Assembly: GCA_026396675.1 (NCBI GenBank)
Contig: JAPLWI010000013.1
Span: 1,218-65,217 of the forward strand
DNA length: 64,000 bases
Direction: 5' to 3'
DNA from: Candidatus Kaiserbacteria bacterium
Lineage (GTDB): Bacteria; Patescibacteriota; Minisyncoccia; Phycocordibacterales; Phycocordibacteraceae
Part shown: piece by piece, positions 15,358 to 43,984 of the stretch
Layout of the letters: each line of letters opens with the position of its first letter
How positions within the stretch are numbered: the first letter of the stretch is position 1
Made by a program: the position numbers and the translations under genes
The notes under the pieces: model-generated
What the model was told of the DNA's origin: nothing
Database searches by the model: none
Seen by the model: only the letters and a program-made list of their open reading frames with translations

Positions 15358-16130
15358 AATAACTAGTGAAGTCAGACTTCGCTAGTCATACGATTCGAGC
15401 AGGAGATGAGAATATTTATCGTCGTGATGTTGCAGGTGAAGCATTAGCATTTCGCGCGCCTCTTTCTTGAATGTTTTTCTGTCAGGATAAAGTTCCAAGA
15501 GAAATTCTTTCTCAATAATCGGAGAATCTATGCCTAATGCATATGTAGAGATACTTGAATGGGAGTAGCGGAGTGCCCACTTCCACGCTTTTTCAAAATC
15601 ATTAACCGTTTTCCCTAATCCTCCAGGATACATATCAAAAACATTTTTCACTTGAATATAAAAAGCAAGATAACGCAGATACGAATCATCATCTACGGTT
15701 TTGCTTTTGTAGGAACCTTGAAAAATACTTCCGGTCTCTGAATATTTTGCATTAAATGCCGCCGACATACTGCCACACAGCCGTTGCATAAATTTCGCAG
15801 TGCCATTTTCTCGTGTTTCTTCAAGCAGTAGATGAAAATGATTTGGCAAAAGCGTCCACGCAAGTATGTGAACCAATGGCTCTCGTTCAGGCCAGTGTTC
15901 AGGTCGTTCAAATGGCTTACAAAATTTTAGGTTCTCAATCCAATTTGGATCTGAAAACGAATCATTTAGATAGAAAAGTGATATATTGAATCGTTGTCGA
16001 TCGTACTCATCTCTCACAATATCCATGCCGCGGGTTCCTCGTTTTATTACATGAAGCACAGAACCTACACCATGTGGTTCGACGCGCATATATCCACATT
16101 CTAACACTAGCGAAGTCTGACTTCGCTTAT
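15358..16130 (-). mobile_element. IS200/IS605-family (Y1 HUH, RAYT-like) element: transposase flanked by near-identical palindromic hairpins
   Basis: Hairpins ACTAGTGAAGTCAGACTTCGCTAGT (15363-15385) and ACTAGCGAAGTCTGACTTCGCT (16106-16127) bracket the tnpA CDS. Confidence 0.7.
15382..16089 (-). CDS. tnpA: IS200-like tyrosine (Y1) transposase
   Basis: N-terminal HV.KRG block, HuH motif NHFHLLL, C-terminal GSIFQGSYKSK...YLRYLAFYIQVKNV. Confidence 0.75.
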   Translation of the reverse strand: MRVEPHGVGSVLHVIKRGTRGMDIVRDEYDRQRFNISLFYLNDSFSDPNWIENLKFCKPFERPEHWPEREPLVHILAWTLLPNHFHLLLEETRENGTAKFMQRLCGSMSAAFNAKYSETGSIFQGSYKSKTVDDDSYLRYLAFYIQVKNVFDMYPGGLGKTVNDFEKAWKWALRYSHSSISTYALGIDSPIIEKEFLLELYPDRKTFKKEAREMLMLHLQHHDDKYSHLLLESYD

Positions 16131-17495: not shown

Positions 17496-19961
17496 ATGTC
17501 CCCGAAAGATAAAAGTCACGAGGTGCCTGCTGTAATGGTGAATGTCATCAATCAGCCGATTGTTGCCGAGATGCGGACCTCGTATCTCGATTATGCGATG
17601 TCGGTCATTACATCTCGTGCTCTACCGGATGTGCGTGACGGATTGAAACCAGTGCATCGCCGCATTCTCTATGCAATGAAGGATATGGGCCTTATGCCTG
17701 GCGGAAAGTTCCGGAAGAGCGCGACCGTGGTCGGCGAAGTACTTGGTAAATATCACCCGCATGGCGACGTTGCGGTCTACGACTCCATGGCGAAGATGGC
17801 ACAGGAATTCTCCTATCGCTATCCGCTCGTACTCGGACAGGGCAACTTCGGTTCAATTGACGGCGATTCGCCGGCGGCGATGCGCTATACCGAAGCGAAA
17901 ATGTCGCGCATCGGAGAAGCATTGCTCGCAGACCTCGAGAAAGAGACCGTTGCATGGAATCCGAACTACGATGCGACACGTAACGAGCCAAATGTGCTCC
18001 CTTCGGCTTTGCCGAATTTGCTTTTGAACGGCACACTCGGAATCGCGGTCGGTATGGCGACCAATATTCCACCGCACAATCTCCGAGAGGTTGTCGCTGC
18101 GGCAATTTATTTTATTGAAAATCCAGATGCAACGACTGACGATCTTCTACAATTCGTGAAAGGTCCAGATTTTCCACTCGGCGGTGTCGCTTTTAATCAG
18201 ATGGACATCAAACACGCATACAGTTCTGGGAAAGGACCGGTAGTGGTGCGCGGCGAAGCAGAAATAGTTGATGATGGGAAGAAAGATACTTCTATCATTA
18301 TTTCTTCAATTCCGTATCGCGTGAATAAAAGCGAACTTATCTCGCGAATTGCCGATTTAGTGCAGGAGAAAAAACTCGAAGGCATTCGCGATCTACGCGA
18401 TGAATCAACATCAGACATCCGTATTGTTGTTGAGCTAAAGGGCACAGCGCATCCACAGGCGGTCTTGAACGCGTTATACAAGCACACCGAACTAGAAAGC
18501 ACTTTCCACTACAACATGCTCGCGCTCGTCGACGGCGTGCCAGAAATGCTTTCTCTCTCCGGAATGATTGAGCACTTCGTACAGCATCGGCAGGAAGTTA
18601 TAAAGCGACGTACCGAATTCGATTTGCGTAAGGCAGAAGAGCGAGAACATATTCTCTTTGGACTTTGTAAAGCGCTTGATCATATTGACGAAGTCATCGC
18701 GACTATTAAAAAAGCAGCGGATATTCCTGCAGCATCGCTCGCTCTCCAGAAAAAGTTCGGTTTTTCCGAGCGACAGGCCGCTGCAATTCTCGAAATGCGT
18801 CTCTCTAAGCTCGCCGGTCTCGAGCGTAAAAAACTTGAAGACGAACTAGCCGAAGTGCAGACGCTCATAAAAAAATTGAAAGAAATTCTTTCTTCGTCAA
18901 AAAAGATTCTCGCGGTGGTAAAAACAGAACTTGAAGAGCTCTCAGAAAAATATGGAGATGATCGTCGCACGAAAATAATCAAAGGCGGCGTACAAAATAT
19001 TTCAGCCGAAGATCTCGTGCCGGATGAAGAGTCAATGCTCGTGTTAACTCAAGGTGGTTATGTGAAACGGACAAATCCGAGCGAATATAAAAAACAGAAA
19101 CGCGGCGGTGTCGGTGTCGTAGATATCGCGACGAAAGAAGAAGATATCGTGACGCATTTCCTCGTCGCAAATGCGCACAGTGATCTTTTATTCTTTACCG
19201 ATTTCGGCAAGGTCTATCAGCTCAAGATGTACGAGATCCCAGAAGGAAAACGCGCGACAAAAGGGAAAAGCATTATGAATTTCCTCGCGCTCGCCGGCGA
19301 TGAGAAAGTAACTTCCATTCTGCCGGTGCCGAAGGGTGCGGCACTTGATGCGTCATCTGTCGTATTCGTGACCGAAGAGGGCGTTGTAAAGCGCGTAGCT
19401 GCGAAGTCGTTCTCGGATGTACGTCGCTCTGGAATTATCGCGATTAATTTGAAGAAGGGCGATCGTCTCGTTTCGGCGAATCATGCGGCAGATGGCGACA
19501 CCGTCTCTATCGTGACTGCAAAAGGGCAGAGTATTCGTTTTGAAGCCGAAGATGTTCGCGAAATGGGGCGCACGGCTGGTGGTGTGCGCGGAATGAGCGT
19601 GAAGAAAGGTGACAAAGTGGTCTCAGCCGAAGTAATTTCCGTTGCAGCCAAGGAGGCGTCACTTCTCGTGATCATGAGTAAGGGCTACGGTAAACGTACG
19701 AAGATGTCTGAATATAAAGTGCAGGGTCGAGGCGGTTCGGGAATCAAGACCGCGGCGGTAACACCGAAGACGGGCGAAATTATCGGTGCAAAAATTGTCG
19801 TAGGTGATTTGAAAGAAGAAGAACTCGTCGTCATTTCTAAAAAAGGGCAGGTGATTCGCACCTCTGTCGCTGAAATCCCTTCACTTTCTCGCGCGACGCA
19901 AGGCGTCCGCGTGATGCGCCTCTACCCGGGCGACTCTATTGCATCAATGGTCGCGTTGTGA
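17496..19961 (+). CDS. gyrA: DNA gyrase subunit A
   Basis: [11 protein letters not shown] active-site Tyr region, QRD loop, C-terminal beta-pinwheel repeats. Confidence 0.95.
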
Positions 19962-20167
19962 TAGTTTCTTGTCAGAGTAATGATCTGCAACCAAACCCTG
20001 CCTTTTCTTCCCGGGGAGGAATCGTAGGGGTAACGCGAGAACGTTGTCGGTGGGGTATACTGCCAGAGTACCCTTAAACACCAAAACGACATACGTTCCC
20101 GCGTTTTCTATTTTAGTACTTGTTGATTGCGCGGCCCGCTGCGGGCCGCGCATGGTATTTTATAGGT

Positions 20168-20704
20168 ATGACATCCTCGTTCAGCGAGCCAAGAGAGAAT
20201 GTGTTGCAGTTAGGTTTGCGCGAAGGAATGAAGGTCGCCGACTTCGGTGCTGGTTCCGGTCACTATGCGCGCGCGGCGGCGGCAGTTGTGGGGCAGGAAG
20301 GAAAGGTTTATGCGATTGATATACAAGAGAATGTTCTAAAACACTTAAAGATTAATACACACTTAGCGCATCGCGGCACCATTGATACTATCTGGGGCAA
20401 TATTGAAAAGCCAGGCGGTACACATTTACGCGACGCGTCGCTTGATGCTGTTATTCTAGCCAATACGCTTTTCCAAATTGATAACCATTCCGAATTGCTT
20501 GGTGAGATACGGCGCGTTCTGAAGCCGGGCGGCAAGTTGATGATCATTGACTGGGCTGGAAGTTACGGCGGTATAGGTCCTGTTCCTGAAAAAGTAGTGA
20601 CCGAGCATGAGGCCGAAGCACTTTTTATCAATGGCGGCTTTCATAAGGTGAAATCATTCCGCGCCGGGCCGCACCATTACGGGATTTTATTCACAGCACC
20701 CTAA
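20168..20704 (+). CDS. Class I SAM-dependent methyltransferase
   Basis: VADFGAGSGHY motif I, LKPGGKLMIIDW. Start at the internal Met (MTSSF). Confidence 0.75.
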   Translation: MTSSFSEPRENVLQLGLREGMKVADFGAGSGHYARAAAAVVGQEGKVYAIDIQENVLKHLKINTHLAHRGTIDTIWGNIEKPGGTHLRDASLDAVILANTLFQIDNHSELLGEIRRVLKPGGKLMIIDWAGSYGGIGPVPEKVVTEHEAEALFINGGFHKVKSFRAGPHHYGILFTAP

Positions 20705-20707
20705 TCT

Positions 20708-22009
20708 ATGAAAATTTCTCTCTTCCAAGGTATTTTGTTCGGCGTATTCGGTCTCGCCGCACTCATCGGTCTTTTTGTTTTCGCGACTTATACAGGTAAG
20801 AGCAGTAGCAGCAGCGGGATCGGAACGGTTGTAATCTGGGGCACGTTGCCGAAAGATTCCATGAACACTATGTTCACTAACCTCGCACAAAAAGACACGA
20901 CTCTGAAGAGCGTTTCGTATGTGCAAAAGGACTCAGCGACACTTCCGAATGATCTCGCTTCCGCGATAGCGACCGGCTCCGCGCCGGATCTCGTTCTGGA
21001 CTCGCAGGAAAATCTGTTCGCACTCGCGAAGTTCATCACACCAATATCGTCGGCAACACTTCCAGCGTCCACATTTACGAGTTCATTTATAGAGGAAGGA
21101 AATCTTTTCGCGTCGTCTGGCGGCTACTACGGGATACCATTTTTGGTTGATCCGCTAGTACTATTTTCAAATCGTTCGATTCTATCTTCTGCCGGCATCG
21201 CGAAACCACCAGCAACATGGGAAGCATTGATTGGTCTAGTTCCGAATGTCGCCGTTCTCTCGACTTCACGACAAATTACGCGCGGACTTATCGCACTCGG
21301 CACCTACAGCAATGTTCACAATGCGCGCGGGATTCTCTCCGCACTCTTCCTCCAAACTAAGCTGCCCATTTCCGCTTATTCTTCAGGCGGCGTTTTTACT
21401 GCTAATCTCGGATCGAATTCTTCGAACAGCGGGCAGCCAGGTAAAGCGGTTGTCGGCTTCTATACACAATTCGCCGATTCTTCAAAGGTCTCGTATACCT
21501 GGAATGCCTCGCTAAATGATTCTCAACAAGCGTTTCTCTCCGGAGATCTCGCGCTCTATCTCGGTTATGCGTCTGAAGCGAGATATTTCACAGCAGCGAA
21601 TCCGAATCTTAACTTTAGTGTTACGCCTCTCCCACAACCGGCAACGGCCACGACGAAGAGCACTTATGGTCTCGTTTACGCATTTATGATTCCGAACGGA
21701 GCGAAGAATGCATCAGGGGCATATCAGGCAGCTGCACTTCTTACTAATTCAGCTGAACAGACCGTCGCGGCATCTGCGACAGGACTCGCACCATCCGCCC
21801 TGAATAATCTTTCCGTCGTCCCTTCTGGTTCTACTGCCGCAGTCGCGTATGCCGAAGCACTCTACGCGAAAGGTTGGCTGTCCCCAGCACCCGCCGCAGT
21901 GGACTCAATTTTCTCTAGTATGATTAACAGCGTGACCAGTGGCCGCTCTACAATTGACACAGCACTTGTTTCCGCCGAAAGCTCGTTGAGTCAACTTCTG
22001 CAACAATGA
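20708..22009 (+). CDS. Membrane-anchored extracellular solute-binding-protein-like protein (SBP family 1-like)
   Basis: N-terminal TM, VVIWGTLPKDSM..., AIATGSAPDLVLDSQ, ATWEALIG - resembles ABC sugar SBPs. No cognate permease is adjacent. Confidence 0.5.
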   Translation: MKISLFQGILFGVFGLAALIGLFVFATYTGKSSSSSGIGTVVIWGTLPKDSMNTMFTNLAQKDTTLKSVSYVQKDSATLPNDLASAIATGSAPDLVLDSQENLFALAKFITPISSATLPASTFTSSFIEEGNLFASSGGYYGIPFLVDPLVLFSNRSILSSAGIAKPPATWEALIGLVPNVAVLSTSRQITRGLIALGTYSNVHNARGILSALFLQTKLPISAYSSGGVFTANLGSNSSNSGQPGKAVVGFYTQFADSSKVSYTWNASLNDSQQAFLSGDLALYLGYASEARYFTAANPNLNFSVTPLPQPATATTKSTYGLVYAFMIPNGAKNASGAYQAAALLTNSAEQTVAASATGLAPSALNNLSVVPSGSTAAVAYAEALYAKGWLSPAPAAVDSIFSSMINSVTSGRSTIDTALVSAESSLSQLLQQ

Positions 22010-23112
22010 AAACGCACTTTTTCGTCATCGCTTTCTTTGCGCTTTTCGTATTTGCGCCGGCGGCGTTCGCTGCAGGCAGTCCAAACGGTAGCGCCTGTTC
22101 ATCTTCTTCGGAATGCTCTGGGGGATTTTGTAACTCGGACACTTCTAATCCAAACAGTATGTATGGAGTATGTGCTTCTAGTGCCGCAAAGACCCAGACG
22201 ACTGGTGTTGATACTTCTAAAACACAAACGACCGGTGTCGATACAACCGGTCAGAATGTTACGCTCATCAATCCTCTCGGTGCGGGAACCAATATTGAAA
22301 CCCTCATCAATCAAATTTTGGCGTTTGTCGTGCGCATTGGCGCCATCATCGTTATTCTGATGTTGGTCTATGTTGGTTTCCTATTCGTTACTGCAAAAGG
22401 AAATGAATCAAAAATTATTGAAGCGCGTCAAGCGCTTCTCTGGACCATCATTGGCGCGCTTATTCTACTTGGTGCGCAGGTAATATCTCTCGGTATTCAG
22501 GCAACAGTACAGGCGCTCTCAACTGGCAATGCCAGCACCAATTCAACTATTCCGAGTGCTGGTAGTTTAACTTTCCCTGGTGCCAGTAGTTTCAGTGGCG
22601 GCACCGTAACAACAGCAACGCAGCAGACCTATGCAAACGCAATAAATCAAGCGCAGAATGCATTCAATACCGCTTGTTCGCAATATGGTAATACAAGCAA
22701 CGAGTGCAAGTCAGCAGGAGCGACTCTCCAACAAGTGGTGCAGAACTTAAGTAATGCAAGCGGGGGCACTTTAGGAGGAGCACTTGGAACAGTAACTTCT
22801 GCCATTAAATCAGTAACATCAGGGACAGGATCGCTAAACACAATAAACTCGGCTGTCGGCTCGTTAACTTCAAAAGCCAAAGCATTGTTTGGCGGGAGCG
22901 GTAGTGAATTTGACGACCCGAAGAATGGTGTTGATTATGCAGCACCCCCAGACACTAGTTCCTACGATAATAATACTGATTACACAGCTCCTGACACCAG
23001 TGCCTACGATAATAGTACTGATTACACAGCTCCTGACACCAGTGGCGACAACCAAAGCAGTTATGAGGCACCTACTGACACTACTGACACTAGCAACGAC
23101 TACTATTATTAA
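22006..23112 (+). CDS. Secreted Cys-rich protein carrying the conserved double-TM (pilin-like) module plus a C-terminal YxxTDYTAPDTS repeat tail
   Basis: Signal peptide, CSSSSECSGGFC, central module LINQILAFVV...LLWTIIGALILLG, then 36-bp tandem DNA repeats at about 22960-23045. Confidence 0.6.
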   Translation: MKTHFFVIAFFALFVFAPAAFAAGSPNGSACSSSSECSGGFCNSDTSNPNSMYGVCASSAAKTQTTGVDTSKTQTTGVDTTGQNVTLINPLGAGTNIETLINQILAFVVRIGAIIVILMLVYVGFLFVTAKGNESKIIEARQALLWTIIGALILLGAQVISLGIQATVQALSTGNASTNSTIPSAGSLTFPGASSFSGGTVTTATQQTYANAINQAQNAFNTACSQYGNTSNECKSAGATLQQVVQNLSNASGGTLGGALGTVTSAIKSVTSGTGSLNTINSAVGSLTSKAKALFGGSGSEFDDPKNGVDYAAPPDTSSYDNNTDYTAPDTSAYDNSTDYTAPDTSGDNQSSYEAPTDTTDTSNDYYY

Positions 23113-23114
23113 TT

Positions 23115-23384
23115 ATGACCTTCGCCCAATTCGTCGGCAGTAGTACCACGGGAATCATCGGCATTTTAAACACGGTTGTTATCCCGATTATCCTCGCGTT
23201 CGCCTTTTTCGCTTTCGTCTGGGGAGTTCTGAATTATTTCTTTTTCAGCAATCGCGGCGATGAAGAAAAATTGAAAGAAGGTCGCCAATTTATCTTTTGG
23301 GGCATTCTCGGAATAGTTGTGCTTTTCTCAATCTGGGGATTCTTGAATCTTTTGTTATCCACGCTCGGTATCACGCCCACCTAA
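23115..23384 (+). CDS. Double-TM pilin-like small protein (paralog family)
   Basis: VVIPIILAFAFFAFVWG ... EEKLKEGRQFIFWGILGIVVLFSIWGFLN. Confidence 0.65.
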   Translation: MTFAQFVGSSTTGIIGILNTVVIPIILAFAFFAFVWGVLNYFFFSNRGDEEKLKEGRQFIFWGILGIVVLFSIWGFLNLLLSTLGITPT

Positions 23385-23406
23385 TAACGTGTCATACTGC
23401 TAACAT

Positions 23407-23865
23407 ATGAGAATAAAACCAATCGTCTACAGTGTTCTCCTCGCGTCTGCGATGCTCTTCGCGCCAGCGTTTGTTTCCGCCGACTCAGTTGTCGGTGGTG
23501 TTTCAAATTCCGGCGGCTTTTTAGGCGTTTCTGGATCAAGTGGTTTCTTCGGTATTTCAATCGGTAGTGGCACCGGATGCATGGGTTCTATCTGCGCACT
23601 CGGGAATACGATTCTCTATCTTATAAATTATGTCTTAGTGCCGGTTCTTTTCGCTCTCGCTTTTATCGCATTTCTCTACGGCATCGCAAGAGCGTACATA
23701 TTCTCCAATGGAGAGCCAGAAGAAGTGAAAAAGGGCCATAGGCTCGTACTCTGGGGCATTGTTGGCTTCGTCGTGATGATTTCACTTTGGGGATTGGTGA
23801 ATGTCGCTGCGAGTACATTTGGTCTCGGCGGCTACGGCGCACCGATGTTGCCGATGTCTTATTAA
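23407..23865 (+). CDS. Double-TM pilin-like protein with Gly/Ser-rich N-terminal region (paralog family)
   Basis: Signal peptide, then LVPVLFALAFIAFLYG...EEVKKGHRLVLWGIVGFVVMISLWGLVN. Confidence 0.65.
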   Translation: MRIKPIVYSVLLASAMLFAPAFVSADSVVGGVSNSGGFLGVSGSSGFFGISIGSGTGCMGSICALGNTILYLINYVLVPVLFALAFIAFLYGIARAYIFSNGEPEEVKKGHRLVLWGIVGFVVMISLWGLVNVAASTFGLGGYGAPMLPMSY

Positions 23866-23874
23866 AATATATTT

Positions 23875-24807
23875 ATGAATGGAATCAATCCAACCTATAT
23901 TCAGGGCTACGCTAGTAGTATCACCGGCATAATTAACGGCATTCTCGTGCCCGTATTAATCTCCATAGCGTTTATTGTCTTTCTTTGGGGTATTTATAAT
24001 TATTTCATCAAAGGCGCTGACAATGAAGAGGCGCGTAAGACGGGTAAAACCTTTGCGCTCTACGGCATCATTGGTTTCGTCGTTTTGTTTTCGGTCTGGG
24101 GCATCGTGCAGATTTTTATGGGAACACTCGGACTCACTGCTGGAAATGTTCCTGCATTCCCATTGATTGGCACAGGCAGTGGCTCATCGGTAAATCCGGC
24201 GTACGGCACTACCGGCTCCGGAACGACTTTCCCCGGAGCTGGTACTTCTGGAGGAACCACAGGCACAGTCATTAAGGGCGGTTCGTGTACATCTGACAGT
24301 AGCTGTTCTGCAAATCTCGTTTGTACAAGCGGCACCTGCGTTCTTCCGATTGGCTCGAATGGATGCGCAGCAGGTTCAACTATTGGTGACTACGGCGGTT
24401 GTGTTCCTGTGAGTTCTAACAGCGTCTCTAGAGGCGGGTCATGTGCAACCAACAGTGATTGCTCTGCAAATCTCGTTTGTACCAATAACGCTTGCGTCTT
24501 GCCAACCGAATCTAATGGATGTGCGGTAGGTTCAACGCTAGACGATTATGGTGGTTGTGTCCCAGTTAGTTCAAACAGTGTCTCCCAAGGTGGTTCCTGT
24601 GCTTCAGACAGTGATTGCTCCGGTGGTCTTACTTGCAGCCAAAACACTTGTGTCATGACCACTGGCTCGAACGGGTGTGCAACTGGTTATGTCCTGGATG
24701 ACTACGGCGGATGTGTTCCAAATGATAACCAAAGTAATTACGAAGTGCCTCCCGATAACTACAATCCTGATAACCAAAGTAATTACGAAGTGCCTTCCGA
24801 TAACTAA
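23875..24807 (+). CDS. Double-TM pilin-like module fused to three ~52-aa Cys-rich repeats (adhesin-like)
   Basis: ILVPVLISIAFIVFLWG...GKTFALYGIIGFVVLFSVWGIV, then 3 x (GGSC.SDSDCS.NLVCT...SNGCA.GST.DDYGGCVPV), then NQSNYEVP repeats. Confidence 0.65.
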   Translation: MNGINPTYIQGYASSITGIINGILVPVLISIAFIVFLWGIYNYFIKGADNEEARKTGKTFALYGIIGFVVLFSVWGIVQIFMGTLGLTAGNVPAFPLIGTGSGSSVNPAYGTTGSGTTFPGAGTSGGTTGTVIKGGSCTSDSSCSANLVCTSGTCVLPIGSNGCAAGSTIGDYGGCVPVSSNSVSRGGSCATNSDCSANLVCTNNACVLPTESNGCAVGSTLDDYGGCVPVSSNSVSQGGSCASDSDCSGGLTCSQNTCVMTTGSNGCATGYVLDDYGGCVPNDNQSNYEVPPDNYNPDNQSNYEVPSDN

Positions 24808-24933
24808 TCAAGACACTACCGACTGCAACAGCAACGATGTTGGATTTTAAAAGATTATCCACAAACCTTCCGAAAACGCATTGACCGTTCCAACAGAAAC
24901 GCTACAATTATCTTGTTATTCATTATATATATT

Positions 24934-25302
24934 ATGAAAAAAGCCCTTATCATTTCTTCGCTCGCACTCGCTTTGCCGCTAGTTTCATTTGCCGCCATCA
25001 GCAATATCTCTGACGCCGGTTCATTCATTATCAATACCATAAATAATATTCTCGTTCCGGTTCTTTTCGCCATCGCGTTCATCGTATTCCTTTGGGGTGC
25101 GTTCCAGGCATTCATCCTTGGCGCCAACAGCGATGAAGTAAAAACAAAAGGTAAGAACCTTATGCTCTGGGGACTCATCGGCTTCGTCGTGATGCTTTCG
25201 GTCTGGGGTCTGGTGAATATCTTGACTGGCACTTTAAGTTTCGGCAATTCTTCAGGACCGACCGGCGGAGTGCCGCAAGCGGGAGTCCAAGTTGGCGGAT
25301 AA
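24934..25302 (+). CDS. Double-TM pilin-like small protein (paralog family)
   Basis: Signal peptide, then ILVPVLFAIAFIVFLWG...KGKNLMLWGLIGFVVMLSVWGLVN. Confidence 0.65.
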   Translation: MKKALIISSLALALPLVSFAAISNISDAGSFIINTINNILVPVLFAIAFIVFLWGAFQAFILGANSDEVKTKGKNLMLWGLIGFVVMLSVWGLVNILTGTLSFGNSSGPTGGVPQAGVQVGG

Positions 25303-25305
25303 ACA

Positions 25306-25566
25306 ATGTCCGTTTTGAACGCATTCCTCTCGAAGGTTGTCATACAGATTGTCAATCCGATAATTCTGCTCCTGTCTTCGGGCGCCTTTATTGTCTTCAT
25401 TTGGGGTATCTTTGAATTTATTGCGCATGCTGGAGATGCGAAGAAGCGTGAAGAGGGTCGCAAGGCAATTTTCTGGGGTCTGATTGGCCTCGTTATCATA
25501 TTCGGCGCATATGGAATCATTAATGTCGCGCTCGGTACTTTCAATCTCACACAAATAACAAAATAA
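25306..25566 (+). CDS. Double-TM pilin-like small protein (paralog family)
   Basis: IVNPIILLLSSGAFIVFIWG...EEGRKAIFWGLIGLVIIFGAYGIIN. Confidence 0.6.
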   Translation: MSVLNAFLSKVVIQIVNPIILLLSSGAFIVFIWGIFEFIAHAGDAKKREEGRKAIFWGLIGLVIIFGAYGIINVALGTFNLTQITK

Positions 25567-25574
25567 AATAATAA

Positions 25575-25605
25575 AGGCCTGCACAACCGTGCAGGCCTTT
25601 TGTTA
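25575..25605. terminator. Bidirectional terminator
   Basis: AAAGGCCTGCAC-AACC-GTGCAGGCCTTTTGTT. Confidence 0.65.
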
Positions 25606-25612
25606 ACAAAGA

Positions 25613-26314
25613 TCATTTCTTTACTCGTGCATACGAGACGATAATTTCTTTTTCCGTCTCATTATGCACGTACACCTCCAACATAGGCCCATCACCACAT
25701 GGATTCGTAGTGGAACCCACTATTCCCTCCGGTCGGCCATCTCTGTAGACACAGTGAGTGGTGAACCCGTCGCCGGTGAATATTACATTGTGGCCGGGTT
25801 GCGAATTGATTCGCGCATTACCACCCGCTGGGACTTTTAACGTCCCACTGTTGTCATGCGACGAAATCCCAGAATGCGAACTTATGTGCGAGCTGGATGG
25901 GGTATTGACCCATCCTATAAAGCCGAACCAAGCAGGGAAGCCGATGAAGATCATAAGTAGCGCCCCCACCAGCAACCAGTTGAGAATCTTCGTCGCTTTC
26001 CCCAACGTTTGCGCGTTGAGCGCGACGATTGTGAAGAGTATTCCGAAGAACACTCCGAGCGAGACCCAATGATCCCAGCTCCAGCCGCCAATCTTCGCGA
26101 GTTGCAGCCCAGGAGCGTAAAGTTTCCAGAAGAAAAGTATCGCGCCGAAGAGTGCGAGCGCTATGCTCCACTCGATTTTCGACCTCTTCATCCAACCGAA
26201 CCTGCCGTTTCCGTTCGTGTTTGTTGGGACGGCTGTTGTTCCTGTTGGTGTCTTTCCCATTCGCCTATCTATCTCTTCTTGTTTTTTTTCTTTTGCTTTT
26301 GATATCAATGTCAT
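25613..26314 (-). CDS. Hypothetical membrane protein with extracellular C-terminal domain
   Basis: Three TM helices, then a Ser/His-rich linker and a Cys-containing domain. Confidence 0.45.
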   Translation of the reverse strand: MTLISKAKEKKQEEIDRRMGKTPTGTTAVPTNTNGNGRFGWMKRSKIEWSIALALFGAILFFWKLYAPGLQLAKIGGWSWDHWVSLGVFFGILFTIVALNAQTLGKATKILNWLLVGALLMIFIGFPAWFGFIGWVNTPSSSHISSHSGISSHDNSGTLKVPAGGNARINSQPGHNVIFTGDGFTTHCVYRDGRPEGIVGSTTNPCGDGPMLEVYVHNETEKEIIVSYARVKK

Positions 26315-27594
26315 TTTTCGTCACCCCCTTCCGTTAGTTTTCCCAACGCCTTTGCAACAATAGGAATAAGTGGGTTATTTGCCCAAATGACCGTGTTGCC
26401 AGCGCCCTTTGACGCCTCTTGCATTGCATCGAGTTGAGCGAGCAATTCTCCAGAAGGACTCTTTTCGATGATCGCGAGTCGCGCCGCTAAAGCTGCAGCT
26501 TCTTTTTTCCCGATCATTTCAATTACATCGGCTTTTGCTTGGCCAATAGTGCGCTCTGCTTCCGCATCTTGTTCTGCAGCATACAATCTTGTAGCTGCCG
26601 CTTGGTTCTTTCTTTTTTCTTCATCGTCGCCTGAAAGATCCATTGTTTGTAGGTCAGCGGTGCGTATTTCTACCCCGTACCTACCTTTCAGACCAGAAGG
26701 AGGGATTAATTTTTTGGAAGAATCCTTCTTATCATCTGGCAACTCAGAATTGAGTTCGATGATAGGTTCAGAAAACTTTCTCCAATAGCTCTCGACAGTA
26801 TCTTCATCTTCCGGCTCATTCCCATTCCCGATCTTCTTTTTGGGAGAGATAAGGTCCTGGTAATCGTGGCTTCCGATGAATGTCCTTACGTGCCTGTTGA
26901 TTGCAGCAGTTATTCGCTGCATCCAATCCTCGCCAGAGAATAACGCGCGATATGGGTTACGCACGGCGATTGTTATCTGTGTGAGTACATCAACAGGGAG
27001 ACGGTCTCTTGTCTCAGCTCCAATGGTTCTGATGGCGTAGATGAAGTCAGCGACATAGATAAAATCGGTTGCTTCTGCTCTTGGCAGAAGTACGATATCG
27101 CCATTTTTATTCGTTTGTGTTTCATTCCATTCGAAGCCATAAACATAAACATTTTTATTAGTCCATGGCCAGCCGACCCAGAAGAGGCCGAGTTTCTTGA
27201 AGAATTTCGAACGATCGTCGTAGGAACTATCTCGGTGATCATCGAATCCTTTTTTGTTATCCTTGCCATGATAGACAATTTCCCAGTCGGGAAGTTTTGT
27301 TACTTCCTTTTCTTCTTCCTCTGTTAGGATTTTCCCCTCTTCTATCACTCTGCCGTCTTTGTCGAGACGGGAATGATACCATTTCTTTCTTGGGTCGTTT
27401 AAGTGATATCCCTCGAAGCTAATGATGAAGTGATCGAAGGAACTGCCTCTCATGATTCCCTTCGAGGTCCCTTCCTTGTCTGTGGTGGCCAAGATACTTT
27501 CTTTAGCGAGCCACATCAGAAAGAGTGGCAGAGCAACTTTGTAAACAACCACTAACGCTATTACCACAATTACTACCACTAACAGATACTCCAT
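26311..27594 (-). CDS. SPFH/band-7 (stomatin/flotillin-like) membrane protein
   Basis: N-terminal TM, central SPFH-like core, C-terminal coiled coil (AAEQDAEAERTIGQAKADVIEM...AAALAARLAII). Confidence 0.6.
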   Translation of the reverse strand: MEYLLVVVIVVIALVVVYKVALPLFLMWLAKESILATTDKEGTSKGIMRGSSFDHFIISFEGYHLNDPRKKWYHSRLDKDGRVIEEGKILTEEEEKEVTKLPDWEIVYHGKDNKKGFDDHRDSSYDDRSKFFKKLGLFWVGWPWTNKNVYVYGFEWNETQTNKNGDIVLLPRAEATDFIYVADFIYAIRTIGAETRDRLPVDVLTQITIAVRNPYRALFSGEDWMQRITAAINRHVRTFIGSHDYQDLISPKKKIGNGNEPEDEDTVESYWRKFSEPIIELNSELPDDKKDSSKKLIPPSGLKGRYGVEIRTADLQTMDLSGDDEEKRKNQAAATRLYAAEQDAEAERTIGQAKADVIEMIGKKEAAALAARLAIIEKSPSGELLAQLDAMQEASKGAGNTVIWANNPLIPIVAKALGKLTEGGDEK

Positions 27595-27708
27595 AACTAC
27601 CTCCTATCCCTTTCGGGAATCTCTTTATTTTCGGTCATTTCAAGGACCTTATTTCTGATGACTATAATACACGAGACGGTGAAAAAGTCAAGGTCTTTGT
27701 AAATGCAG

Positions 27709-27790
27709 TGGGCGAGGAGGGACTTGAACCCTCACCTCTTGCGAGACATGGTCCTAAGCCATGCGCCTATACCAATTCGGCTACTCGCCC
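27709..27790 (-). tRNA. tRNA-Leu (anticodon TAG), CCA encoded
   Basis: Long variable arm, anticodon loop CTTAGGA, T-loop TTCAAGT, acceptor GGGCGAG/CTCGCCC. Confidence 0.8.
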
Positions 27791-27919
27791 AGATATTTCC
27801 GCACCTTTCAAATATACTATGATTTGCTATATTCTAAAGAGGCGCCCATATGTAGGCATATGAGCGCTTCGCTCGACGAGAATAAAATCAAGTGAACTTG
27901 TTTTATTCTGCCTCATTCA

Positions 27920-27992
27920 GCGCCCATAGCTCAGTTGGTAGAGCAGATCCCTCTTAAGGATAAGGTCCCAGGTTCGAGCCCTGGTGGGCGCA
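27920..27992 (+). tRNA. tRNA-Lys (anticodon CTT)
   Basis: GCGCCCA acceptor, D-arm GCTCAGTTGGTAGAGC, anticodon loop CTCTTAA, T-loop TTCGAGC. Confidence 0.8.
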
Positions 27993-28130
27993 CAAATGAG
28001 TCGCATCTACGACATCGCGAATTGGGAAGTCGGTCCAATCACCGCATCGTTACAAAAGAAATATAAAGAAGTCCTTCACGGTGTCGATTCTTATTACAAG
28101 CACCTATTGACGATTCTCAAATAATTTTTG

Positions 28131-28218
28131 TACCGAGGGTGGGACTTGAACCCACACAGGCCGATTTAAGGCCTACAACGTTTTAAGCGTCGCGTGTCTA
28201 CCATTCCACCACCCCGGC
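28131..28218 (-). tRNA. tRNA-Leu (anticodon TAA)
   Basis: Long variable arm, anticodon stem CGACG/CGTTG with loop CTTAAAA, T-loop TTCAAGT. Confidence 0.7.
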
Positions 28219-28259
28219 GCGCTCCCTTATTTGTACCACATCCTTATACCTTTTGTAGG

Positions 28260-28331
28260 AGGCCAGAGCGGGAATTGAACCCGCGCATAGCGCTTTTGCA
28301 GAGCGCCGTGTTACCACTTCACCACCTGGCC
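28260..28331 (-). tRNA. tRNA-Cys (anticodon GCA)
   Basis: Anticodon stem GCGCT/AGCGC with loop CTGCAAA, T-loop TTCAATT. Confidence 0.75.
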
Positions 28332-28345
28332 GTTTGTTAATGATA

Positions 28346-28678
28346 CTACTGCACGCTACCTTCGGGAAGAGATTGTTCGCCATTATCAAGAAGAAAATCA
28401 ACACGCGGAAGAGGAGAGAGGCGCGTATGATTTTTCAAATAATTTGAAAGTGCCTCGCGTTGCCGTTCAAGGAAGGCGAGCGCCGCGTGGGATTTCTCAA
28501 TAGGGAAGACACTTACAAAGACAGTTACTCGCTCGCCGTGTGCGAAGGGTACTGCGCGAATGACTGTGATGAGTGACTCGATACCGGCTTCTCGCGCAAT
28601 AAACTGCGCGGTCTCATGCGCGATAACTTCGACGACACGTTCGCTATGATGTGAAGCTGATTTTCTATCAAGCATCAT
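28346..28678 (-). CDS. rbfA: Ribosome-binding factor A (probable)
   Basis: About 110 aa, immediately downstream of infB, KH-like composition. Weak sequence support. Confidence 0.5.
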   Translation of the reverse strand: MMLDRKSASHHSERVVEVIAHETAQFIAREAGIESLITVIRAVPFAHGERVTVFVSVFPIEKSHAALAFLERQREALSNYLKNHTRLSPLPRVDFLLDNGEQSLPEGSVQ

Positions 28679-37323: not shown

Positions 37324-37698
37324 ATGGATGTAGAAACAAAACAACCGATTCCTTGGATTCTCTGGATCTTGCTTGCCTCGGTGCTCATTATCCTCGGGCA
37401 GAGTATGTACAAAAACTATATTGCGAAGAACTACCCATTTTTTATAGAAGCGTCGTGTGACACAGCGACGAATGAATGTTATGTGCGCAGTTGTGATGTC
37501 GACGGGGACTGCCCGCCGGACAATCTCACCGTATACCGCGTTTTCCAACTTCCTGCCTTTGAATTTAAAAATTGTTCTGATAATTCTTGTTTGAATATTT
37601 GTCCATCCGAGGCACATTCTTGTGAAGAAATAATGTGCTCAACCCAGAGCGACATTTCGTGCGATGGACCAATAGAAGGAACAGCAACTAGTTTATGA
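37324..37698 (+). CDS. Small membrane-anchored Cys-rich extracellular protein
   Basis: N-terminal TM, 12 Cys in about 90 residues. Confidence 0.45.
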   Translation: MDVETKQPIPWILWILLASVLIILGQSMYKNYIAKNYPFFIEASCDTATNECYVRSCDVDGDCPPDNLTVYRVFQLPAFEFKNCSDNSCLNICPSEAHSCEEIMCSTQSDISCDGPIEGTATSL

Positions 37699-38537
37699 CC
37701 AAAGCAAAAGAGTCGGTGCATATTCCGCGTCTTGTACGCCGTTCTATGAATGGTGTGATGCAATTTGACGCGTTCAGTAATCTGTATACAGAACCGCGTA
37801 TCGCGCTCTGGGAATTGAATCAGCGAAGAAAGGATAACGCGCTTAAAAAGGCGGTGCGAGAGAATCTCGGTTCATCTGCGGAAAATTTTCTCAAGAAGTT
37901 TAACCAGCCGCGTGCAGTACTCTTCCGTCAAGTCGCGACTCCAACACACGAAATCATCCGTTTTCTTAAAATCGCCAATAAAATGAATCTTAAACCGCTC
38001 ATTCTCGAGTATCATGATGACAAATTCGTGAGCGCCGAGAATCGCTTTAAGCGATCGCTTGGCAAGATGCCGATTTACCAATACACCGGTTCGGATGGAC
38101 GGGAAATGGTGGAATACGAAACAATATGCAATTTTAATACCTCAACCGGTAAAAAATTTAAGAATATAATCTGTCTTAATGGTGAAAAATTGATTCCTTT
38201 TCATCATCGCTTATTTAGAACGCTTACAGGATTAAATCCAAAAACATATACGGTTGACGGTTCTGACTGGTTCTCGTCGGCGGGGAAGAAAGCAGAATTG
38301 TATTATGAGCAATTCCTCTCATTCTTCATACGAGATGGCATCTTATTTGAGAATTTTATGCCGTTCCGATCAGAAGGCGCTTTTACAAAGACCATAATTT
38401 CACCTGCGTTTGAAAATCTTGAAAAAAAGTACGGAGTAAAACCGCTCATTGTGCGCCTCGCTCCCGAAAAAGAAGAAATGCGTCAATTCTGGGACGCGTA
38501 TCCTAAAAAGATTAAAAAGCATTTGAAGATTGTTTGA
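37695..38537 (+). CDS. Hypothetical protein
   Basis: 280-aa ORF with consistent codon usage and no recognised motif. Confidence 0.45.
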   Translation: MTKAKESVHIPRLVRRSMNGVMQFDAFSNLYTEPRIALWELNQRRKDNALKKAVRENLGSSAENFLKKFNQPRAVLFRQVATPTHEIIRFLKIANKMNLKPLILEYHDDKFVSAENRFKRSLGKMPIYQYTGSDGREMVEYETICNFNTSTGKKFKNIICLNGEKLIPFHHRLFRTLTGLNPKTYTVDGSDWFSSAGKKAELYYEQFLSFFIRDGILFENFMPFRSEGAFTKTIISPAFENLEKKYGVKPLIVRLAPEKEEMRQFWDAYPKKIKKHLKIV

Positions 38538-39108
38538 TATGGCGCATAAACTCGAAGAAGAAATAAAACTTGCGGTGCAGGATATACCCGCGATGCTTTC
38601 AAAAATTCGTTCCGTTGCAAAATATGTGAGGATTGAGTATCTACGTGATGTCATTTATGGGGCGAGCGGAGAGAAAAAGAAGATTCGCTTACGAATTCAA
38701 GACAATTTCGAATTTCGTCTTGTAGATGCTACCTATAAATATCGTGTGGCGGTAGAGGAAGGCGTCAAAAAAGAAATAGAAGAGACCCTATATAAAGGCA
38801 ATTCTTGTGAGGACGCATTGAAAATCATTTCTTCGCAGGGACTTATAGAAGAAAATTCGTATGAAAAGACACGAGTTATTTTCGCTGGTCCACACGATAC
38901 TGAAATTACGCTGGATATCTATCCTTATGGCGCATGGGTGGAAATTGAGGGTGAATCATCCAAAATTCACGAAGTCGCGAAACAGCTCGGTTTCAGTCAA
39001 AAAGAGTACATTGAAACAGGGGCAGACGATCTTTATCTGGAATGGATTAAAAAACATAATCTTCCTGAAATGTGGGATGTGCGATTCGGCCTGAACGGTA
39101 ATAAATAA
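38530..39108 (+). CDS. CYTH-domain protein (class IV adenylyl cyclase / triphosphatase-like)
   Basis: N-terminal EEEIKL (ExExK) and alternating acidic beta-strand pattern typical of CYTH. Confidence 0.5.
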   Translation: MFDMAHKLEEEIKLAVQDIPAMLSKIRSVAKYVRIEYLRDVIYGASGEKKKIRLRIQDNFEFRLVDATYKYRVAVEEGVKKEIEETLYKGNSCEDALKIISSQGLIEENSYEKTRVIFAGPHDTEITLDIYPYGAWVEIEGESSKIHEVAKQLGFSQKEYIETGADDLYLEWIKKHNLPEMWDVRFGLNGNK

Positions 39109-39124
39109 TCGATACAGTTTTTTT

Positions 39125-39934
39125 GTGCTACTTATAATCGGTGGTATAATCCATTTTATGGACTTACAATTATTTATATCTAATGAATTGGCGATTCATT
39201 TTTATTATTCGAGAGATAGTGTTGAAGGAGACATCTTCCATGTAAAAAATCTGTGTTTAGTGTTTCCGGGATTGCCCAACACGATAGATAAGAGTTATTT
39301 CTCAGATAGAGTCAGTAGAGATACTGCATTTCTCTCCGTTTCTTACTACGGTACATGGATGAGTGGTGGAAATTTTAATCCACAAAGCGTAAAACAAACA
39401 ATTCAAGACGCCATTTCATTTGCAAAATCTAAAGAAGGCGTTAAAGCTTTTGACAATGAGAAAATGTGCTGGGAATATGAGAATCTGTTCGTGGTTGGGT
39501 ACAGCTTCGCTGGGAATTTTGTCCTTAACTCGGTTTTGGATAAAGACAGTATAACCTCTATTATACTATGTGCACCTTTGATTTATGTAGACAAACAAAT
39601 TGTCGAAACGGTGTTGGGGAATGACGCAAGTGATTTCTTTGACTCCAATATGTTTTTTCTACAGTTTTTACAGCGCGGTTATCCGTATGTTTTACGGGGT
39701 ATTGAAGATCATTCTTGGGCAAGCTATTTTGATGGATCATACGATCTAAGTAAAATATCGATTCCAGAAAATTATCCGCCAATTCATGTCATTCACGGAA
39801 CTGAAGATACTCAAGTGAATTTCAAATTTTCTGAGTATTTTAATAGTCAGTACCCAACAATCTCCACTCTTGAACTGCAGAAAGGAGTCGGGCATACAAA
39901 AGAGATGTTTCAAAGTAGACACCTACGTGTATGA
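39125..39934 (+). CDS. Alpha/beta-hydrolase fold protein
   Basis: GYSFAG nucleophile elbow (GxSxG), C-terminal His (GVGHT). Confidence 0.55.
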   Translation: MLLIIGGIIHFMDLQLFISNELAIHFYYSRDSVEGDIFHVKNLCLVFPGLPNTIDKSYFSDRVSRDTAFLSVSYYGTWMSGGNFNPQSVKQTIQDAISFAKSKEGVKAFDNEKMCWEYENLFVVGYSFAGNFVLNSVLDKDSITSIILCAPLIYVDKQIVETVLGNDASDFFDSNMFFLQFLQRGYPYVLRGIEDHSWASYFDGSYDLSKISIPENYPPIHVIHGTEDTQVNFKFSEYFNSQYPTISTLELQKGVGHTKEMFQSRHLRV

Positions 39935-40686
39935 GTAGAAAACTGGTTTGCATAACAGATTGTGTTGATGTTGCATATAACGAATTGCGCGGAGTGGTTT
40001 ATTCAGAATTACAAAAACTTGGCACGGTTTCTGACTTAATAATCGAACCAGTCGTTCCGGTCGAGGCCTTTTCTGTCATAAACGGCAATTTCATCCTACG
40101 CCTCATGGGAGAGGTATATCCTGATGGCACTGTTTTCTTAGTAATTTTAAACCCATTAAAAGAAAGACCTGCTCGCTTAGTTGGGAAAACAAAAAAGAAG
40201 GGGTTTTATTTTGTTGGGGCAAACACGGGTGTGTTTGATTGGTTCACTAAAGATTTCGGAATAGAAGAACTTTATGAATTGCACGATCCTGGATTCGTTC
40301 CATTTGGAGGGAAATATGTACATGCTCCTTCTGCGGTCAAGATAGCGTGTGGAGTAAATCTGGCGACTCTTGGCAAACCTTTTGATAAACAAAATCTATT
40401 GCAATTAGACGTGCAAGATGGCACTATCGTGCACATAGATAATTTCGGGCTGATAAAATTTACCGGTATCCTACCTGAATTAAAAGAGAACACTCAATTA
40501 AAGATTGATATCAACGGGCAGTTTATTTCAGCGGTCTATGCACAAAGAATGATGAGCAGGGAAACAGGCGAATGGGTCTTATATCCTGGCAGTTCTTTGG
40601 GGCTACCTGAGGTAGGAAAAGTAAGATGCAATGGAGCGGAAGAAATACGGGCACGTGTCGGAGAAGTTATTAAAATATCGATTTAA
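39931..40686 (+). CDS. SAM hydroxide adenosyltransferase (DUF62, fluorinase/chlorinase-like)
   Basis: VCITDCVD N-terminus, TIVHIDNFGLIKF C-terminal barrel motif, DPGFVPFGGKYVHAPS. Confidence 0.6.
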   Translation: MSRKLVCITDCVDVAYNELRGVVYSELQKLGTVSDLIIEPVVPVEAFSVINGNFILRLMGEVYPDGTVFLVILNPLKERPARLVGKTKKKGFYFVGANTGVFDWFTKDFGIEELYELHDPGFVPFGGKYVHAPSAVKIACGVNLATLGKPFDKQNLLQLDVQDGTIVHIDNFGLIKFTGILPELKENTQLKIDINGQFISAVYAQRMMSRETGEWVLYPGSSLGLPEVGKVRCNGAEEIRARVGEVIKISI

Positions 40687-40739
40687 AAATTGAAACGGCT
40701 TGTATCTTCTGCAGATACAAGCCGTGACAGCTTTGTTTC

Positions 40740-41876
40740 TCAAATTCCACTTCCGAACTTTTTAAGAAAGAATTCGGTACCGAATCCGCTGGTGATAAGG
40801 CGTTCTCTTTTGCTCTGTAGCAATTTCTTCGTCCAGTCACAAGATCCTCCACCGGCCAGCGAATATCTATCACCCGTGGTTTTCTGAGCAGTTATCTTGT
40901 AACAGATGCCTGAGTAATATCCTATACCCGAGCATCTTTCCAGATCAAAGTAGAAACGCACTTCCGGGTACTTATTCCTGAGTAAATCCACCATCTCCCT
41001 CTCCGCATTTTCCATCTCTCTGATGCAACTCTCAAGAGCTGGGTAGGTAATTGGTATGTCGCTTGCATGTGCAATTTCACTCGGAAGCTTAATTGAATAG
41101 GTTGTAAAGGGTTTAAAGGAACTGTCTTTTGTCCTTCGTACAACTTCATCTTGATCAATCTGACCTGTTGATATCAAATGTTTCAGAATTCTTATGTCTG
41201 AAATCGCCACTGAAACATTTTTAACATCAAAGCCGTGGTCGGATGACCATTTCAAGAATTCCAACCATGTGGCTATGTGCAGATATAGAGATGAAAGTTC
41301 AAACTTATTAAACCCAGCAACATCTCTTGCAGCTGATGCAAGTGCGAATGCCCTGAAATGTGAAGTCAGACCGCCTTGTTTTGGAATATCCTGGATCCTT
41401 AATAGGCGATGACTTGCCGCTAAGTGGGTCTCGTCGCTTTCTTTTGTTATCCGTGCAGTTTTTCTTCTGTGGGCACACTCAATTCCAAGAGCCATACCAG
41501 AATCGCCAAGAACCTCCACGTTTCTTATCGTTGAGAGAGAAACCTTCGGATCAAGCGCTGTGAGAGCGGCATTTGCTCCCAAAGTACTTACTGGCGCCAA
41601 TTCAACGGCTGAGAAGATTCGCGGTAATTTGTCATACAGCGCCCTGTCTAATTCGAGCAAATCTCTAGGATCCACTTCGGCAATTACACTAAGTCGATTG
41701 TTCTCATAATTTCGCATTATGTCAACAGGTGTAATTTTGCTGGCCTTTACCTCAAAGATATACAGAAGCAAAGTCTGTAATTCGCCCCAGCTAATTGCAT
41801 TTGAAGACAAAATCTCAACAACGTTTCCTAGTCCAAGTGACGCTAATAACTTATCTAATGCTGATTTCACACTCAT
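40740..41876 (-). CDS. Uncharacterised protein with class II aaRS-like motifs (HFRAF..., GGGSCDW...GFGTEFF)
   Basis: Motif-2/3-like strings only. Divergent from the SET/rSAM operon. Confidence 0.3.
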   Translation of the reverse strand: MSVKSALDKLLASLGLGNVVEILSSNAISWGELQTLLLYIFEVKASKITPVDIMRNYENNRLSVIAEVDPRDLLELDRALYDKLPRIFSAVELAPVSTLGANAALTALDPKVSLSTIRNVEVLGDSGMALGIECAHRRKTARITKESDETHLAASHRLLRIQDIPKQGGLTSHFRAFALASAARDVAGFNKFELSSLYLHIATWLEFLKWSSDHGFDVKNVSVAISDIRILKHLISTGQIDQDEVVRRTKDSSFKPFTTYSIKLPSEIAHASDIPITYPALESCIREMENAEREMVDLLRNKYPEVRFYFDLERCSGIGYYSGICYKITAQKTTGDRYSLAGGGSCDWTKKLLQSKRERLITSGFGTEFFLKKFGSGI

Positions 41877-42096
41877 AATTCACCTCGCTCCTCGGGATTT
41901 TTTAATCTCAATGTACAAATCTAATACAAGAGTGCCATAATTATCTTAAATGCGCAAGGTTTAAATAACATGAATTATTTGCTAATACTTTTATGCTAAA
42001 ATATACCAACATATATGCTCACCATTCTCGCTTCTGCCAAGCCAAGTCCGATCCATGGGGTAGGGCTTTTTGCCGATGAGTTTATTCTGGGGAAAT

Positions 42097-42693: not shown

Positions 42694-42778
42694 CAGAATT
42701 TCGGAAACATATATCATATAAGTAGATGCTCTTTGACTGCTAAAGAGTAAAATCTCAAAAAAAGAAAGGAGATGTGTT

Positions 42779-43819: not shown

Positions 43820-43820
43820 A

Positions 43821-43973: not shown

Positions 43974-43984
43974 GCGGTCTCAGC

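Follow-up and report, generated by a model that had tools for sequence, protein, structure and literature searches.

On contig JAPLWI010000013.1 of a Candidatus Kaiserbacteria bacterium (assembly GCA_026396675.1) we analysed a stretch of 64,000 nucleotides (positions 1,218 to 65,217; the whole stretch is called the window below, and coordinates are counted from its first nucleotide), and within it a tandem array of six small membrane protein genes, which lies downstream of gyrA and immediately follows a gene for a solute-binding protein (SBP)-like product. An earlier note, made from the letters of this DNA, had described six consecutive plus-strand genes built on one common module, and all six are indeed present at 22006-25566. 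The six genes, which we number as pilins 1 to 6, and the promoter that precedes the fifth are as follows (aa, amino acids; bit scores refer to the Pfam profile PF18895 unless another is named):

22006..23112, plus strand: pilin 1, 368 aa, 34.4 bits; signal peptide, four-Cys N-terminal motif, module at about 95-165, and Ser/Thr-rich tail
23115..23384, plus strand: pilin 2, 89 aa, 32.6 bits; bare two-helix module with no signal peptide
23407..23865, plus strand: pilin 3, 152 aa, 33.6 bits; signal peptide and Gly/Ser-rich N-terminal spacer, then the module
23875..24807, plus strand: pilin 4, 310 aa, 34.3 bits, and 30.7 bits to the EB module
24857..24908, plus strand: predicted internal promoter in the spacer between pilins 4 and 5; ATCCACA box at 24857-24863 and TTGACC-N16-TACAAT at 24881-24908
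24934..25302, plus strand: pilin 5, 122 aa, 41.5 bits; signal peptide and module
25306..25566, plus strand: pilin 6, 86 aa, 38.1 bits; bare module with no signal peptide

Alignment of all six proteins gives the module consensus ..ILVPVL.A.AFIVFLWG...EEK.KEG...LWGIIGFVV..S.WG.VN, and a hidden Markov model built from the six paralogs detects no further copy across the 64 kb. Hydropathy profiles bear out the two-helix, charged-loop topology that had been proposed, with two hydrophobic helices per protein and a loop containing 3-5 Lys/Arg in all six; by the positive-inside rule, the termini are predicted to face out and the Lys/Arg loop to face in. AlphaFold2 likewise models pilin 5 as two helices (residues 25-65 and 67-104) folded into a long hairpin, block-mean pLDDT being 82-93 over residues 31-100. 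The several signal peptides of the earlier note correspond to an extra signal-peptide-like N-terminal helix in genes 1, 3, and 5, each with an AxA-type site (AFA/AG, VSA/DS, and SFA/AI, the slash marking the site).

Two members had been singled out for large Cys-rich extensions, and we find both: a domain of three repeats in pilin 4 and a Cys-rich N-terminus in pilin 1. Pilin 4 consists of an N-terminal module, a Gly/Thr linker, three 52-aa repeats C-terminal to the module, and an acidic Tyr-rich tail; the repeats contain six Cys each and are 56-75% identical to each other, and the four-Cys N-terminal motif of pilin 1 is related to the first half of the pilin 4 repeat. Pilin 1 also has a feature absent from the earlier note, a C-terminal Ser/Thr-rich tail of 195 aa with DYTAPDTS repeats (a 42-bp repeat is present in 2.2 copies at 22951-23044). 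Because the predicted termini face out, the Cys-rich parts of pilins 1 and 4 would lie outside the cell, and such predicted extracellular extensions fit the suggestion that these members might serve as adhesins.

The ends of pilins 1 and 4 resemble each other, being acidic and Tyr-rich (23050-23112, ..DNQSSYEAPTDT..; 24725-24807, ..DNQSNYEVPPDN..), and Ser/Thr/Gly-rich linkers precede both acidic tails. Genes for a PMT_2-type mannosyltransferase bearing tetratricopeptide (TPR) repeats (1196-2791) and for two GT2 glycosyltransferases (4860-5609, and 2792-3514 on the minus strand) are also present in the window. O-glycosylation, or a common sorting signal, is possible.

The neighborhood of the array is conserved. 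Our set of related loci comprised 80 genome loci around gyrA (L006-L085) and 80 metagenome loci around SBP homologs; about 140 related contigs carry the block downstream of gyrA, and the flanks could be viewed for 8-10 kb per locus. Among the genomes with the array is the closed Kaiserbacteria genome OY969413.1 (993 kb, locus L012). In every locus extending far enough, gyrA is followed, after a gap of variable length, by methyltransferase, SBP, and pilins in that order, with insertions of up to ~4 kb between gyrA and the methyltransferase gene and none inside methyltransferase-SBP-pilins, and the genes 3′ of pilin 6 vary between genomes. One locus, L072 (CAYXYP010000009.1), is the sole genome locus with 10 kb downstream of gyrA in which the methyltransferase, SBP, and pilins are missing; a DUF2298 membrane protein takes the place of the block there, and this could be a rearrangement or a loss.

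The window is otherwise housekeeping in character, encoding FtsZ, FtsA, ribosomal protein S1, signal peptidase I, peptidyl-tRNA hydrolase, initiation factor IF-2, RbfA, lactate/malate dehydrogenase, enolase, pyruvate phosphate dikinase, CTP synthase, FtsE/FtsX, and 12 tRNAs. GyrA (821 aa, 17496-19961) is 75-91% identical to GyrA of Kaiserbacteria, Paceibacterota, Minisyncoccia, and Parcubacteria metagenome-assembled genomes, and pilin 5 is identical to the NCBI hypothetical protein NTU85_02155 [Candidatus Kaiserbacteria bacterium]. A tblastn search of 72,556 plasmids with pilin 5 returned no match. A mobile-element origin was considered and rejected, given that housekeeping genes surround the array in conserved order in all relatives; the window comes from the chromosome of a candidate phyla radiation (CPR)/Patescibacteria bacterium.

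Comparison of 42 six-gene arrays (41 others and the window's own) shows orthology by position. Specifically, i) the closest window paralog of gene i is the one at position i in 238 of 246 assignments across the 41 other arrays, and even pilin 1, the most divergent paralog, has position-1 orthologs in 41/41; ii) median module identity is 51-76% between orthologs vs 21-49% among paralogs, pilin 4 being the least conserved (median 51%) and pilin 6 reaching a median of 71%; iii) the paralog count, which the earlier note had proposed to check across strains, is six in 58 of 90 complete arrays and in 47 of 49 among close relatives; and iv) architecture is set by position, such that positions 2, 5, and 6 are always bare (position 2 in 42/42), position 1 has the N-terminal Cys motif, and extensions are limited to positions 1, 4, and sometimes 3. 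The extensions vary in length and Cys content between species; at position 4, a C-terminal Cys-rich extension of 66-371 aa is found in 10 of the 42 genomes.

Positional orthology, together with ortholog identity above paralog identity, argues for six distinct, non-redundant subunits rather than a variation cassette. Interchangeable pilin variants serving antigenic variation or host-strain switching, by analogy with Bartonella and Anaplasma, have been proposed for Patescibacteria arrays (PMC12102498), and both the low identity of the paralogs and the differences between species in the pilin 1 and 4 extensions would suit such a cassette; but the array analysed here has strict positional orthology, paralogs that are each better conserved across genomes than among themselves, a copy number that is steady in close relatives, an architecture fixed for each position, and a pilin 4 (all 310 aa) that is identical among contigs of five sequencing runs, all of which favor fixed non-redundant subunits. 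We regard a variation cassette as very improbable, and as disfavored for the core modules.

The junction between pilins 4 and 5 stands apart from the others. The sole long spacer in the array precedes pilin 5 (126 nt in the window, median 84.5 nt, vs 1-19 nt at other junctions), and the 64 kb contain two perfect TTGAC-N17-TANAAT sites, against 0.18 expected, one of them being the promoter within this spacer. The site is present in 33 of the 42 arrays (37 with a looser pattern); an ATCC[AC]CA box lies upstream of the promoter at a fixed 24-nt offset in 39/42, and the -10 element is a constant 26 nt from the pilin 5 ATG. Conservation is likewise highest for pilin 5, with a median module identity of 76% and orthologs that are 75-88% identical, near the 75-91% of GyrA. 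Pilins 5 and 6 would thus be transcribed separately and strongly from the predicted promoter, and we take pilin 5 as the candidate major pilin because it combines the highest conservation with its own conserved near-consensus promoter. The spacer as a whole (24808-24933, and the same spacer in L006-L085) is conserved far above neutral expectation, and a semi-conserved leader in it, ..GTTATCCACTTATCTA..ATG, repeats a TATCCAC motif; TATCCACA occurs 5 times in the window vs 1.25 expected. The box and the TATCCAC repeat may be a regulator site flanking the promoter. A scan of 19900-28500 against Rfam found tRNAs only, and the conserved pilin 5 leader matches no RNA family.

The six genes belong to PF18895 (T4SS_pilin), as all of them exceed the curated gathering threshold of 26.6 bits (32.6-41.5 bits, E 1e-8 to 1e-10), and this profile matches 55/55 array members in a family survey of 11 genomes that includes the window's six. 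All six also match NF045849, the NCBIfam model of a pilin-like conjugal transfer protein of Mycoplasma integrative and conjugative elements (ICEs), at 18-38 bits (E 1e-3 to 7e-10), below the equivalog cut-off of 40 bits. PF04956 (TrbC/VirB2) directly matches 18 of the 55 surveyed array members at E <= 1 (best E 5.2e-6), and two array members of Southlakia epibionticum match both PF18895 and PF04956 (PMC10633639). The reading of the genes as VirB2/TrbC-type pilins of a type IV secretion system (T4SS), for which the earlier note had called for profile searches, is therefore supported by these searches. The link to VirB2 itself is indirect, as the window genes miss PF04956 while other array members match it, and homology to classical VirB2 through such intermediates is plausible.

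As to where the rest of such a system might be encoded, the VirB4 and VirD4 ATPases reported as missing are indeed missing from the window, where every open reading frame (ORF) tested is housekeeping or unrelated; VirB6, VirB3/PrgI, and TrsD could not be found in the 64 kb either. The large unassigned ORFs near gyrA in the 80 genome loci encode DnaE, threonyl-tRNA synthetase, TopA, PriA-like, DUF2298, or familyless proteins, none with a Walker A motif. The suggestion of a T4SS-like locus does not hold in this respect: the locus is a pilin array only, with no machinery gene nearby. Among the Kaiserbacteria assemblies of Table S1 in PMC12102498, 14 were considered here, and 11 of these are scored VirB4-positive; of the four genomes among them whose gyrA-linked array we examined, those of L010, L025, and L041 are positive and that of L032 is negative. 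The virB4 gene of Paceibacteria has been placed near dnaA/dnaN in the literature, and a pilin gene lies near virB4 in 1135 of 1948 assemblies (PMC12102498).

We think it probable, on balance, that these are genes for VirB2-like pilins belonging to a T4SS of the Patescibacteria type (monoderm, MPF-FATA-derived), carried as a stand-alone, vertically inherited chromosomal operon, and that their products polymerise. Each pilin would insert into the membrane as a helical hairpin with its termini outside and its Lys/Arg loop inside, three of the six first shedding a signal peptide; a VirB4-powered machine encoded elsewhere in the genome would extract and polymerise them; and the product would be a short mixed pilus or an envelope-spanning conduit at the contact with the host cell. 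The six subunits would be non-redundant, with pilin 5 (and pilin 6) supplying the bulk subunit under its own strong promoter, pilins 1 and 4 displaying variable disulfide-rich domains outside as host-recognition modules, and the co-transcribed orphan SBP-like protein and the methyltransferase acting as conserved accessory genes.

Several observations weigh against this proposal: i) no window pilin matches PF04956 at E <= 0.1; ii) hhalign comparison of the pilin alignments with seven Agrobacterium-type (MPF-T) VirB2/TrbC proteins from conjugative plasmids gives probabilities of 1.8% and 0.6%; iii) structures retrieved by fold comparison with the hairpin model are helical hairpins of a generic kind, with no solved conjugative pilin among them; iv) no T4SS machinery gene is found in the 64-kb window or in the 8-10 kb around the array in about 140 related contigs; v) three of the six pilins have no signal peptide; and vi) no pilus of the PF18895 family has been observed in any Patescibacterium, and reviews call a pilus a possibility (PMC12857230). 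A search of solved structures with a profile of the pilin alignment gave only chance matches to TRP channels (E ~3).

The last two of these six points would fit an alternative in which the hairpins are membrane-resident channel parts, associated with the T4SS but remaining in the cytoplasmic membrane or cell wall like the small membrane proteins of monoderm T4SSs and building no pilus. Pili are generally lacking in Gram-positive-type T4SSs according to the literature, and VirB2 has been reported to be related to the N-terminus of VirB6 (PMC9905601). The PF18895 family nevertheless bridges to the TrbC/VirB2 pilins, the large and predicted extracellular Cys-rich domains of two paralogs are hard to reconcile with buried parts, and a polymer would better account for six conserved non-redundant copies, one of them under a strong promoter. 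Channel parts are an unlikely explanation in our judgment.

Two genes lie between gyrA and the array:

20168..20704, plus strand: class I S-adenosylmethionine (SAM)-dependent methyltransferase (Methyltransf_11/31/25, E 5e-17)
20708..22009, plus strand: membrane-anchored orphan SBP-like gene of the sugar/CUT1 type (SBP_bac_8, E 7e-22; SBP_bac_1, E 3e-19)

A generic class I SAM enzyme by family, the methyltransferase is encoded immediately before the SBP in all related loci that reach far enough. The ORF begins with TTG at 20120; since the gyrA terminator hairpin (20128-20152) lies within this longer frame, ATG at 20168 is the likelier start. The SBP-like protein has a signal-anchor helix and a family-1 SBP domain; its nearest solved structures are maltose/sugar SBPs (E 1e-7), to which it is a distant relative. 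It had been described as lacking a transporter partner, and this stands, as the 64-kb window contains no sugar-type permease; nor is the SBP operonic with two permeases and an ATPase, no such adjacent genes being found here or in about 140 related loci. The window has a single BPD_transp_1 permease (59580-60329), a protein of the taurine/nitrate type that has its own ATPase and lies 37 kb from the SBP. It forms part of a group at 58528-61119 in which an ATP-binding cassette (ABC) permease and ATPase of the taurine/nitrate/sulfonate type, both on the minus strand, stand beside a familyless protein of 225 aa (60442-61119), with no recognisable binding protein.

The linkage of SBP and pilins is close and conserved. 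The array is tightly packed (short junctions of 2-22 nt), and the stop codon of the SBP gene overlaps the start codon of pilin 1 (ATGA); among the 62 metagenome loci that could be tested, a pilin gene lies directly 3′ of the SBP in 59, down to 32% SBP and 54-69% GyrA identity, and in the remaining three the pilins are 0.4-1.1 kb further from the SBP. Such linkage, the insertions that fall between gyrA and the methyltransferase gene but never within the block, and the missing sugar-type permease would all be in keeping with SBP-coupled uptake or sensing, in which a host-derived sugar or glycan is bound by the SBP and an oligomer of hairpins receives this ligand, or a signal, from it; VirB4 might play no part in this, or the pilus lumen might serve as an import conduit. 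Against this, we know of no SBP-dependent transporter that employs two-helix hairpins. The entire neighborhood from gyrA to IF2 is syntenic, so that adjacency alone is no proof of function, and the genome beyond the window could hold a permease. Reviews do speculate that the T4SS or pilus may import host molecules (including PMC12857230), but the S. epibionticum T4SS cluster has pilins and no SBP (PMC10633639). We consider SBP coupling improbable. A more elaborate version is quite improbable, and we mention it as speculation: in Paceibacteria related to Kaiserbacteria, a fixed six-subunit heteropolymer and its dedicated, transporter-less sugar-type SBP could be a conduit for importing nutrients or signals from the host rather than a needle for export, with the SBP as basal receptor and pilins 1 and 4 binding the host surface through their Cys-rich domains.

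Downstream of pilin 6 lie a hairpin and two genes on the opposite strand:

25573..25600, either strand: bidirectional terminator-like hairpin, GC-rich, with a 12-bp stem and T runs on both sides
25613..26314, minus strand: membrane protein of 233 aa, fast-evolving, with three transmembrane helices and a small C-terminal beta domain
26311..27594, minus strand: flotillin/SPFH-like membrane protein of 427 aa, overlapping the start of the 233-aa gene

The hairpin looks like a closing terminator for both the pilin array and the convergent operon. The opposite-strand pair had been read as a membrane protein and an SPFH protein; the first of these calls stands, and the second is weak (Band_7, 19.3 bits vs a cut-off of 23.6), although a profile of the SPFH-like orthologs matches flotillin-2 at E 0.007. 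The idea that the 233-aa protein is an NfeD partner, with a C-terminal OB-fold of the NfeD type, was not supported. We found no link of either gene to the pilin array beyond synteny and the shared terminator hairpin.

A six-gene tandem pilin array is already a published phenomenon in Patescibacteria, and the window is a further example: an essential six-gene PF18895 series and 441 arrays have been described, so the array is of a known kind. In S. epibionticum ML1, six tandem PF18895 genes (SEML1_0014-0019) in the T4SS cluster are all essential by transposon sequencing (Wang et al. 2023, PMC10633639). Like the genes analysed here, they are small and divergent, some have signal peptides, and they lie on a Patescibacteria chromosome; a related pilin array is also found in Nanosynbacter lyticus TM7x. 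The ML1 array, however, lies within a virB4/virB6/prgI cluster near dnaA, whereas the window array stands alone beside gyrA and adjoins an SBP-like gene and a methyltransferase gene that are both absent from the ML1 cluster; essentiality is known for the ML1 array only. The 441 arrays, of 2-11 VirB2-like pilins each, come from a search of 3,035 Patescibacteria genomes with PF18895, PF04956, and CONJScan (Quinonero-Coronel et al. 2025, PMC12102498). Within the surveyed arrays, mean identity is ~25% and the maximum 54% (PMC12102498); as here, the genes are tandem PF18895/PF04956 members, many of them away from virB4. These arrays are most abundant in Microgenomatia and Saccharimonadia, whereas the window array belongs to Paceibacteria (Kaiserbacteria). 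What our analysis adds is the positional orthology, the pilin 5 promoter, and the conserved SBP linkage.

More distant systems resemble the array in part. The TrbC/VirB2/TraA pilins of diderms (Agrobacterium T-pilus, F pilus) are likewise small, with two hydrophobic helices, a short basic loop, and signal peptidase processing in some, but each such system has one major pilin, whose gene adjoins virB3/virB4, as the window array does not; the window pilins have a longer and more charged loop, two of them have large extra domains, and their host lacks an outer membrane. The DNA-import pili of archaea, Ced/Ted (CedA1/TedC; PMC9905601), resemble the array in having chromosomal VirB2-like pilins, a relaxase-less domesticated T4SS, and a single membrane. 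The function of Ced/Ted is import rather than conjugation (PMC9905601), and their loci differ from the window in placing a pilin beside VirB4-like and VirB6-like genes without six paralogs. Matches of the six window genes cover almost the entire model of the Mycoplasma ICE pilin-like protein (NF045849, the Mbov_0395 family). That protein also belongs to a monoderm, as part of a conjugative element, but one gene within the mobile element encodes it, whereas the window has a chromosomal array of six.

Other features of the window are as follows. An ORF with an IS200-like Y1 transposase domain (15382-16107, minus strand; PF01797, 33.9 bits) lies ~1.4 kb upstream of gyrA in housekeeping surroundings. 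The region 38000-48000 has a lower GC content (0.38-0.43 vs ~0.47) and may be an acquired island; it holds four ORFs of no Pfam family, one of which has a weak, sub-threshold NCBIfam match to class IV adenylate cyclase, together with a SAM hydroxide adenosyltransferase-like gene and genes for SET-domain, radical SAM, S9 prolyl oligopeptidase, and histidine-kinase ATPase proteins. At 37324-37698 (plus strand), an ORF of 124 aa with an N-terminal membrane helix, ~12 Cys, and no family match is predicted to encode another small disulfide-rich exported protein. An HNH-endonuclease-like ORF (51443-51910, plus strand; weak, 19.8 bits) lies between tRNA-Arg (51016-51087) and tRNA-Thr (51931-52004). 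Finally, a peptide chain release factor of 289 aa (52586-53455, plus strand) is without the first ~95 positions of PCRF, reflecting either a shortened factor or a miscalled start; the canonical CTTTGAC prfB frameshift site could not be found near this ORF.

The Patescibacteria T4SS is essential in the sole species tested. Paralogs that are individually conserved across a lineage constitute a natural experiment, one that favors mixed assembly over a variation cassette. Pilin 5, with its conserved promoter, offers a handle for antibodies, tagging, and cryo-electron tomography, and the conserved orphan SBP-like partner is a candidate for physical contact with the pilins. The locus leaves knowledge of the family unchanged, and should SBP and pilins be joined by synteny only, it is an ordinary instance of a published phenomenon; if the import conduit outlined above is real, it would give the essential T4SS of Patescibacteria a concrete and testable mechanism of uptake.

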